From: a virus
Taxonomy: Duplodnaviria; Heunggongvirae; Uroviricota; Caudoviricetes
DNA: 28,944 nt
Virus record (IMG/VR): IMGVR_UViG_2667527522_000007
Direction: 5' to 3' (one strand)
In this document: one piece after another, positions 27,023 to 28,944 of the stretch
How positions within the stretch are numbered: the stretch's first letter is position 1
Layout of the letters: each line of letters opens with the position of its first letter
Position numbers and translations under genes: made by a program
The notes under the pieces: generated by a model
Seen by the model: only the letters and a program-made list of their open reading frames with translations
What the model was told of the DNA's origin: nothing
Database searches by the model: none

Positions 27023-27216
27023 TTCCAGAACCTCCGGCTTTTCAGAAAGGTCAGAGCCTTTTTTAACGGACTCTGTTTTTTGGTGCGGATAATGATTCCC
27101 TTGCGACCCTTCCCGTGGGTGATGGTGAAGTCAATCGCCCTGGGGCTTTCGTTACGCAGTAACTGAGCAATACAACGCGGCTCATTCATAATCACAACCC
27201 CATCCACAAAAGCCAT
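27019..27216 (-). CDS. Small hypothetical protein (P2 orf78 position)
   Basis: 65 aa basic ORF coupled to B; overlaps cox 3' end. Confidence 0.4.
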   Translation of the reverse strand: MAFVDGVVIMNEPRCIAQLLRNESPRAIDFTITHGKGRKGIIIRTKKQSPLKKALTFLKSRRFWK

Positions 27217-27479
27217 GCATCACGCTGTTCAACCGGTCGGTTATAAAACGCCTCACGTACAGCGCGATTAAACTCAGGAATGAAAACCCATTTTTCACCG
27301 GCACGAGCCTTCGGTTTGCAAGGATCACGCAATTCAATAATTGGTAATTTATTTGCCTTCACCATTTCACTGACGGCTGTCTTTGGCTTCCCTAATAAAT
27401 CAGCAAATTTATCCACATGAACCGCATCAAGCGGATACTGAATCACATAATTTTCAGCGTCCATATATGGTACCCTCAT
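27192..27479 (-). CDS. cox: Cox excisionase / repressor of Pc (start may be the internal Met at 27464)
   Basis: About 90 aa, first gene of the early operon, divergent from C; C-terminus ...RDAWLLWMGL resembles P2 Cox. Confidence 0.75.
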   Translation of the reverse strand: MRVPYMDAENYVIQYPLDAVHVDKFADLLGKPKTAVSEMVKANKLPIIELRDPCKPKARAGEKWVFIPEFNRAVREAFYNRPVEQRDAWLLWMGL

Positions 27480-27600
27480 AGGATCCAGCCCTTTCTAAAC
27501 CACTCAAAACCGTTTAGACGCTGGTTTATTCTCAAATCAATGGAACCTATATAGGTTCCAGTTTTGAGGGAATTTAGTCCCTATATAGGCACCATGTCAA
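27480..27600. promoter_or_regulatory. Immunity switch region (divergent Pe/Pc promoters and repressor operators)
   Basis: Intergenic between divergent cox and C; 18-bp perfect palindrome GGAACCTATATAGGTTCC (27542-27559) and a second CCTATATAGG copy (27580-27589) 34 bp away; additional inverted repeats cactcaaaac/gttttgag. Confidence 0.5.
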
Positions 27601-27894
27601 ATGAAATTAAGCGAAAAGATTAAGGCCTTGCGTGAGGCTGAAGGGCTAAGCCAATCAAAATTCTGTGAAATCATAGAGTTACCGCTAAGCACACTTAAAA
27701 AATATGAAGGAGGAAACTTTGAACCCGGTGGCACAGCTTTGCTAAAAATCACTATGCATCCCACATTCCAAAAATATGCTTTATGGCTTATGACAGATAA
27801 AACCGCGCCGGACGCAGGACAAATCGCACCGGCTCTCGCGCACATTGGGCCAGAGTCAACAGAGTCCAACCACTCCGAGAAAAGGATTGGATAA
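27601..27894 (+). CDS. C: Immunity repressor C (HTH)
   Basis: 97 aa, N-terminal HTH (LSQSKFCEIIELPLSTLKKYEGG); C-terminus ...SGQIAPALAH resembles P2 C. Confidence 0.8.
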   Translation: MKLSEKIKALREAEGLSQSKFCEIIELPLSTLKKYEGGNFEPGGTALLKITMHPTFQKYALWLMTDKTAPDAGQIAPALAHIGPESTESNHSEKRIG

Positions 27895-27963
27895 CTCTAT
27901 ATAAAGATTACATTTTCACCATTTGCTACCAAGATGGTGAATACAGCGCCGGAGGGCTTTCTT

Positions 27964-28944
27964 ATGGCAATTAAGAAGCTCGATGATGGTCGCTATGAAG
28001 TGGACATTAGACCTCGCGGTCGCGACGGAAAACGCATCCGCAGGAAATTCGAAAGAAAAGCTGAAGCACTAGCATTTGAGCGATACACAATCGCCAATGC
28101 CAGTCAGAAAGAATGGGGAGGCCAGCGAGCAGACCGCCGGACTTTGAGTGAGTTGCTGGACATCTGGTGGAAATATCACGGGCAAAACCACGAGCATGGA
28201 ACAAAAGAGTTTAATCATCTACTCAAAACCATCAGCGGCATAGGTGATATACCAGTGAACAGGATGAGCAAAAGGGCTTTGATGGATTATCGTTCCATGC
28301 GACTACGTGATGGTATCAGTGCCGCAACGATAAACCGTGACATGTACCGATTATCCGGCATGTTCACAAAATTAATTCAATTGGATGAATTTTCCGGGCA
28401 ACACCCAATTCACGGACTGCCGCCACTGGCGGAGGCCAACCCTGAAATGACGTTCCTGGAAAAAGCAGAAATCGAAAAACTGTTAAATGTTTTGGCTGGT
28501 GATGACTTACTTGTCGCGCTTTTATGTCTGAGCACTGGAGGAAGATGGACGGAAGTTGCCACGCTAAAACCAGCACAGATTACAAATTGCAGGGTTACCT
28601 TCCTGAAAACCAAAAACGGTAAAAAGCGAACCGTGCCGATTTCTGAGGAACTGGAGAAAAAAGTTAAAGAGGAGGCCAGCGCCAAATTATTCAAAGTTGA
28701 TTATGAGAAATTTTGCGGGATTTTACGCAGAGTGAAACCTGATATACCACCCAATCAGGCAACCCATATCCTGCGGCATACATTCGCAAGCCATTTCATG
28801 ATGAATGGGGGCAATATAATCGCACTGCAACAGATTCTGGGACATGCGAGCATTCAGCAGACGATGGCCTATGCGCACCTTGCGCCTGACTATCTGCAAA
28901 ATGCCGTCGCTCTGAATCCACTAAAAGGCGGAGTGACGTTATAA
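27964..28944 (+). CDS. int: Tyrosine integrase (start chosen at MAIKKLDDGRYEVDIRP; the track ORF starts at 27934)
   Basis: N-terminus matches P2 Int as remembered; catalytic-domain residues present (...HILRHTFASHFMMNGG...MAYAHLAPDY); stop coincides with the window end. Confidence 0.9.
   Translation: MAIKKLDDGRYEVDIRPRGRDGKRIRRKFERKAEALAFERYTIANASQKEWGGQRADRRTLSELLDIWWKYHGQNHEHGTKEFNHLLKTISGIGDIPVNRMSKRALMDYRSMRLRDGISAATINRDMYRLSGMFTKLIQLDEFSGQHPIHGLPPLAEANPEMTFLEKAEIEKLLNVLAGDDLLVALLCLSTGGRWTEVATLKPAQITNCRVTFLKTKNGKKRTVPISEELEKKVKEEASAKLFKVDYEKFCGILRRVKPDIPPNQATHILRHTFASHFMMNGGNIIALQQILGHASIQQTMAYAHLAPDYLQNAVALNPLKGGVTL

Follow-up and report, generated by a model that had tools for sequence, protein, structure and literature searches.

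Operators of the immunity repressor C in P2-related phages had been located as of 2007 only in P2, P2 Hy dis, and WPhi (PMC1904268). P2 C has as its binding sites two direct repeats of 8 bp, spaced 22 bp apart, on either side of the −10 element of the early promoter Pe, whereas P2 Hy dis C, which is 63% identical to P2 C, binds 8-bp repeats that lie 26 bp apart and flank the −35 element (PMC1904268). The C operator of WPhi is made up of 10-bp half-sites, 34 bp apart from center to center, that flank the Pe −10; repression remains intact when one half-site is mutated and is abolished when both are (PMC1904268). The work on the WPhi switch is that of Liu and Haggard-Ljungquist (1999), as described in PMC1904268 and PMC1904263. 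According to Massad et al. (2010, PMC2995052), P2-family operators are direct repeats and not palindromic. As for Cox, the P2 cox-box TTAAA(G/C)NC(A/C) is present in six or more copies, with a spacing of 10 to 11 bp, over Pc, and P2 Cox filaments can spread toward Pe when the concentration is high (PMC3936717). Phages are placed in the same immunity group when their C proteins are at least 95% identical, and members of a group have the operator sequence in common (PMC3448106).

Here we analyzed the switch region of a 28,944-bp stretch of viral DNA (referred to as the window), the first 25 kb of which is about 96% identical to P2-like phages (Peduovirus) across 85 to 94% of the length. A pair of repeated sites lies between a cox-family gene and a divergent gene of the P2 C family, and an integrase gene follows (Table 1). 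In P2-like phages, the integrase gene is co-transcribed with C. This gene context (cox, C, and integrase) and the likeness to Peduovirus identify the locus as the switch between lysis and lysogeny in a P2-like prophage. [quoted passage not shown]

Table 1. Features of the switch region (coordinates are those of the window; a dot means that no strand applies)
Feature	Coordinates	Strand	Basis or remark
cox, 90 aa plus stop	27192..27464	−	ORF list; Pfam Phage_Cox, E 1e-23
Candidate Pc start and Cox operator region	27481..27535	.	GGATCCAGCCCTTTCTAAACC block plus inverted pair; inferred
Distal (promoter-downstream) operator site, WPhi O2 equivalent	27542..27559 (core CCTATATAGG, 27546-27555)	.	About +5 to +25 of the predicted Pe transcript
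Predicted Pe −10, TAAATT	27571..27576 (27576->27571)	−	Same place as WPhi Pe −10
Proximal operator site, WPhi O1 equivalent	27580..27589 (CCTATATAGG)	.	Within the 18-nt spacer between Pe −35 and −10
Predicted Pe −35, TTGACA	27595..27600 (27600->27595)	−	Adjoins the C start codon
C immunity repressor, 97 aa, HTH	27601..27894	+	ORF list; HTH_3; P2 C structure match
Integrase gene (tyrosine integrase)	27964..28944	+	Integrase domains; start from relatives' annotation

The C protein of the window aligns over its full length (residues 3 to 97) with the P2 C repressor (PDB 2XCJ/2L49; E value of 3.6e-21). Its identity is 57% with WPhi C, 43% with P2 C, and 65% with P37 C, and exactly the same protein is recorded on at least 1,000 contigs. 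The window Cox is 82% identical to WPhi Cox and 41% identical to P2 Cox. Relatives annotate a 273-nt version of cox with its start at the ATG at 27464, which is preceded by a GAGGG ribosome-binding site, and given this start the cox-C spacer spans 27465 to 27600. A preliminary description of this DNA had put the intergenic region at 27480 to 27600, with the repeated sites between divergent cox and C genes. The location stands, with a Phage_Cox ORF on the minus strand and a P2 C homologue on the plus strand; the left boundary does not, as relatives have cox annotated from the second ATG. The spacer also shares a 15-nt direct repeat, 87% identical between its copies, with the C gene (CTAAACCACTCAAAA at 27495 to 27509 and CTAAGCCAATCAAAA at 27646 to 27660), possibly by chance.

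Both reading of the sequence and a script located the perfect 18-bp palindrome GGAACCTATATAGGTTCC and the second copy of its core, as the preliminary description had reported. With one more base on each side, the palindrome becomes a perfect 20-mer, TGGAACCTATATAGGTTCCA (27541 to 27560). The two CCTATATAGG cores start 34 bp from each other and are separated by 24 bp. A pattern search of both strands of the window that allowed at most one mismatch returned just these two copies, the chance expectation being 0.25, and two or more copies occurred in none of 100 dinucleotide-preserving shuffles. As CCTATATAGG is its own reverse complement, direct and inverted orientations of the pair are indistinguishable. 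A full-text literature search for CCTATATAGG returned only unrelated papers, for example, on MADS-box sites.

A consensus scan of positions 27400 to 27700 found one promoter-like site, on the minus strand, which matches 10 of 12 positions (TTGACA, an 18-nt spacer, and TAAATT) and has the position and direction expected for an early promoter reading into cox. The two CCTATATAGG copies flank its predicted −10, one within the −35/−10 spacer and the other just past the predicted start. Scan and copy count in the window thus place at Pe two repeated half-sites within the 8 to 10 bp that are typical of P2-type operators. The preliminary description had noted that the sites overlap TATA-rich candidate −10 elements. 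Being AT-rich and TATAAT-like, the TATATA cores might indeed be taken for −10 hexamers, belonging either to Pc or to an alternative Pe, with the duplication reflecting two promoters. We find this reading extremely improbable, as the sole promoter hit has its −10 between the cores, and no site on either strand paired a TATATA core with an acceptable −35. Further, the CC/GG flanks and the exact 10-bp identity of the copies are not promoter features, and in WPhi the start of Pc is 60 nt away from the distal half-site (PMC1904263). A plus-strand promoter with a TATATA core as its −10 was rejected, the scan having given none.

The geometry of the locus is that of WPhi. In the WPhi sequence, GTCACCAATA occurs twice, 34 bp apart, at equivalent positions (oligonucleotide sequences are given in PMC1904263). 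The window likewise has 10-bp half-sites 34 bp apart with the −10 between them. In both phages, the proximal half-site occupies the −35/−10 spacer (TTGACA-17-TATATT in WPhi), the TTGACA −35 is joined to the start of C, and the distal half-site lies just after the transcription start, within an inverted repeat; as noted above, the Cox proteins are also similar. The half-sites themselves differ, GTCACCAATA being a non-palindromic direct repeat and CCTATATAGG a palindrome, and so do the C proteins, whose recognition helices have different residues at positions 30, 32, 34, and 39. With its different half-site and a C identity of only 57%, the window phage falls outside the WPhi immunity class. DNA similarity to WPhi ends within cox, of which WPhi matches only the 3′ part. 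The palindromic half-site departs from the description of these operators as non-palindromic direct repeats (PMC2995052), which leaves its location and inferred function unaffected.

P2, the prototype of the family, resembles the window in having Pe and Pc face to face in the cox-C spacer, a C protein that is a small HTH dimer, and a pair of sites that flank the Pe −10. In contrast to the window, its half-sites are 8 bp long, direct, and 22 bp apart, and both of its regulators are distant. The preliminary description had judged the sites unlike the P2 operators and had taken this to imply a distinct immunity specificity. Both points are supported: the P2 O1/O2 pair is absent here, and the two C proteins share only 43% identity, so that the phage falls outside the P2 immunity class. 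The region is not identical to the Pe/Pc region of P2, and megablast identity was found only with the group of L-413C; in sequence, the locus differs from the switch regions of both P2 and WPhi. The P2 residues proposed to read bases (Y31, S35, Y36, and R41; PMC2995052) align with L, K, K, and N in the window protein. P2 Hy dis likewise has two half-sites and belongs to the same operator family; unlike those of the window, they measure 8 bp, lie 26 bp apart, and are placed around the −35 instead of the −10. Membership in the P2 Hy dis class was rejected, as P2 C shares 63% identity with the Hy dis C and only 43% with the window C.

Next to these described operators, we compared C-relative loci, 80 of them from IMG/VR plus WPhi and P37, and about 38 C classes proved usable. 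On the C strand, these classes share a scaffold of distal region, Pe −10 (AATATA/AATTTA), 18-nt spacer, and TGTCAA fused to the ATG. While this scaffold is constant, the repeated sequence varies with the C recognition helix: it is GTCACCAATA in WPhi-like classes and GTCATTAA in P37-like classes, classes with the C motif ..LSTLKKYE.GNF have (C/A)CATATAGG-type cores, and those with ..RSTLAKYE have CCTA(T/A)ATAGG. The half-sites vary with the C class and not with Cox; therefore, the 10-mers are very likely C sites rather than Cox sites.

The same comparison bears on the suggestion, made in the preliminary description, that the palindromes bind Cox, in which case Cox would repress Pc through them. 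The capacity of P2 Cox filaments to extend toward Pe at high concentrations (PMC3936717) could be cited in its favor. However, the Cox proteins of the window phage, WPhi, and P37 are 82 to 88% identical, and yet the sequences repeated at these positions (CCTATATAGG, GTCACCAATA, and GTCATTAA) are wholly unrelated; nor does the P2 array of six or more cox-boxes at 10- to 11-bp spacing resemble two 10-mers 34 bp apart. What these heteroimmune classes with similar Cox proteins do have in common is an upstream block, GGATCCAGCCCTTTCTAAACC (27481 to 27501). We therefore consider Cox binding to the palindromes very unlikely, and the conserved block is a more plausible place for the Pc start and the Cox boxes. 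In the same region, the inverted pair TCTAAAC (27494 to 27500) and GTTTAGA (27512 to 27518) is similar both to the P2 cox-box and to the P2 C half-site GTTTAGAT. No clear periodic series of cox-boxes was found in 27480 to 27540, where there are only loose matches (CTAAAC and CTCAAA).

Positions 27150 to 27950 are 98.5 to 99.6% identical by megablast to ten phages, namely, L-413C (Yersinia), P24B2, the “P2” of E. coli T22, MET_P1_103_31, R18C, P2_AC1, FSL SP-004, vB_YpM_50, 569R9, and HQ103 (Yersinia). The window C differs from that of this L-413C-type class at 1 of 97 residues, and the cox-C spacer, including the operator sequence, is identical to that of the temperate or temperate-looking members. 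The differing residue is Glu93 (27878), which is Ala93 in all ten sequenced class phages and lies in the flexible C-terminal tail; two synonymous differences (27781 and 27891) also set the C gene apart from those of the class phages.

Seven immunity classes were reportedly distinguished by Karlsson et al. in 2006. A data set of 13 C types that includes L-413C consists of the seven earlier types and six new ones, the latter without L-413C (PMC3448106); being absent from the six new types, the L-413C class is therefore one of the seven. In the literature that we covered, we found no experimental operator map for the L-413C-type class and no report either of its palindromic half-sites or of double-operator substitutions in R18C and L-413C.

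The predicted 76-bp operator segment is also widespread among resident prophages, occurring in 419 of 5,426 complete E. coli genomes (about 8%), once in each and on the chromosome. It is identical to that of the window in 313 of the 419. A 34-mer around the distal site is exact in 414 of these prophages, and the corresponding 34-mer for the proximal site in 406. In the remaining 106 copies, the segment differs from that of the window. Six variant prophages that were sampled have changes at 27539, 27570, 27571, 27571 plus 27572, 27594, and 27597, all outside the 10-mers, with a cluster at 27570 to 27572, the end of the Pe −10; several of the changes fall in the predicted −10 or −35. By these changes, the Pe −10 TAAATT becomes TAAATC or TAAACC, and the −35 TTGACA becomes TTGGCA (loci L014 to L016 and L097 of our set). 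These changes suggest promoter-down mutations of Pe in resident, possibly domesticated, prophages. Taken together, the putative operator is of a known type: it has WPhi-like geometry, belongs to a known immunity class, and is identical to those of published phages and hundreds of E. coli prophages.

The class phages also provide natural variants of the proposed operator. We aligned their spacers and tabulated every difference over 801 bp. R18C (locus L007), which has been described as virulent (PMC6823313), is set apart from P24B2 and other temperate relatives by exactly 2 of the 801 positions, one in each 10-mer: G>A at 27555, the last base of the distal copy, and C>A at 27581, the second base of the proximal copy. 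Its C and Cox proteins are unchanged, and the probability that two substitutions among 801 positions would hit one 10-mer each by chance is about 3e-4. L-413C (locus L002), whose C is intact as well, has private changes at 27543 (G>T, in an arm of the distal palindrome), 27589 (G>T, the final base of the proximal copy), and 27572 (A>G, the fifth base of the Pe −10), in addition to Cox P51L (window-equivalent position 27313); three of these four changes fall within 48 bp (P of about 8e-4). As double half-site mutations abolish repression in WPhi, changes at both sites are what would be expected of a virulent mutant here. The virulence of R18C and the lytic habit of L-413C may thus be the outcome of simple double-operator (vir-type) mutations, a reservation for L-413C being its further changes in Cox and the Pe −10, and we regard this natural genetics as the strongest support for reading the 10-mers as an operator. 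HQ103 (locus L012) has a 7-bp deletion (window-equivalent positions 27757 to 27763) that truncates C to 61 aa, by which a phage of this immunity class appears to have become lytic in another way.

The distal copy is embedded in a second element. Most of the 38 C classes have a dyad here: the 46 nt that follow the Pe −10 form a hairpin beginning 1 to 9 nt past the −10, with a mean z of −2.9 and with z below −2 in 26 classes; the 46-nt segment of the window has a z of −6.0. Stem sequences differ between classes: WPhi, P37, and many others have AAAAGGT/ACCTTTT, one further class has CAACTGGTTC/GAACCAGTTG, and the window has GGAACC/GGTTCC. P2 has a TTTAGTGC-N10-GCACTAAA dyad slightly further downstream. 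The dyads were mapped to 27531 to 27568 in the window, about 600 to 680 in loci L017 to L096, 1903 to 1935 in WPhi (locus L001), and 1933 to 1960 in P2 (locus L013). The distal half-site is located in the hairpin loop or stem, and in WPhi-like layouts inside the dyad. The GGAA/TTCC arms around the distal copy probably belong to this separate, class-independent dyad and not to the specificity site, and the dyad may act as a 5′-terminal stem-loop on the early mRNA.

It could be argued from the hairpin that the 18- to 20-bp palindrome is mainly an RNA or cruciform element, for example, a stabilizer of the early mRNA or an attenuator between the convergent Pe and Pc transcripts, and that the second CCTATATAGG is incidental. 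The recurrence of the fold behind the Pe −10 in spite of the differing stems fits this reading, as do the L-413C change at 27543, which breaks one stem pair, and a terminator scan, which picked out TGGAACCTATATAGGTTCCA with TTGATTTGAG after it on the minus strand. Nevertheless, we consider it unlikely. It leaves unexplained the exact second 10-mer in the promoter spacer, which, 34 bp away, cannot join the hairpin. Further, the R18C change at 27555 only turns a G-C pair into G-U in the RNA, and yet it is accompanied by a change in the other 10-mer. The longer 67-nt fold of the Pe leader is not significant (z of −1.6), and it was the 46-nt comparison across classes that proved informative. The terminator reading of the palindrome was rejected: a real terminator at the start of the essential early operon would abolish its expression, and other classes lack a conserved T-run. 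Most likely, the hairpin is an additional layer that explains the extra GGAA/TTCC arms, rather than an alternative to the operator.

The orientation of the predicted half-sites varies across the 38 classes, with 7 having direct copies only, 7 having inverted copies only, and 6 having palindromic ones, where chance would account for 1% per class. The seven inverted-only classes, with at least 9 of 10 matches, are represented by loci L040, L062, L079, L087, L088, L089, and L094 (at about 620 to 700), and the P37 locus L003 (700 to 740) is listed alongside them. On these alignments, the inverted copies in seven classes conflict with the statement that direct repeats are used throughout. The twofold-symmetric 10-mer of the window would fit one symmetric dimer per “half-site,” and perfectly palindromic half-sites raise the prospect that the mode of C recognition may differ from that described for the P2 family. 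Therefore, we put forward, as possible rather than probable, that the rule of non-palindromic direct repeats is not general and that each site is an orientation-independent site for one symmetric C dimer, with a distal site that can be flipped, a hairpin that could have an RNA function of its own, and R18C and L-413C as vir-type mutants. Its place in the loop of a conserved inverted repeat, where the Pe transcript begins, may be what has allowed the distal site to be flipped in evolution.

The operator reading, which the preliminary description had considered likely for C, is thus supported by anatomy, homology, the co-variation of half-site and C class, conservation in prophages, and the mutations of lytic derivatives; physical binding by C, its stoichiometry, and the exact Pe start are what we infer from these comparisons. 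By analogy to WPhi and P2, the switch would work as follows. Pe would be transcribed leftward, on the minus strand, into cox, from a −35 at 27600 to 27595 and a −10 at 27576 to 27571, with one half-site filling the −35/−10 spacer and the other just downstream of the transcription start. C dimers on both sites together, probably binding cooperatively, would occlude the Pe spacer and the initially transcribed region. RNA polymerase would thereby be kept off Pe, so that lysogeny is maintained and superinfection immunity is class specific, and loss of both sites would yield a virulent phage. Heteroimmunity to both P2 and WPhi is expected, since neither of them shares the half-site sequence or the C recognition helix of the window phage.

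These results leave the current understanding of the P2 switch unchanged, and what they add is modest and mainly of interest to P2 specialists. They fix the positions of the operator, the C start, and the predicted Pe for annotation. They also assign the prophage to the L-413C-type immunity group, which predicts that it is homoimmune with the prophages found in about 8% of complete E. coli genomes. For R18C, which serves as a lytic phage for Citrobacter rodentium and Shigella, and L-413C, which is used in plague diagnostics, they offer a testable explanation of how a phage with an intact repressor can be lytic. Finally, the natural operator variants may serve as material for learning how a symmetric C dimer reads its sites.
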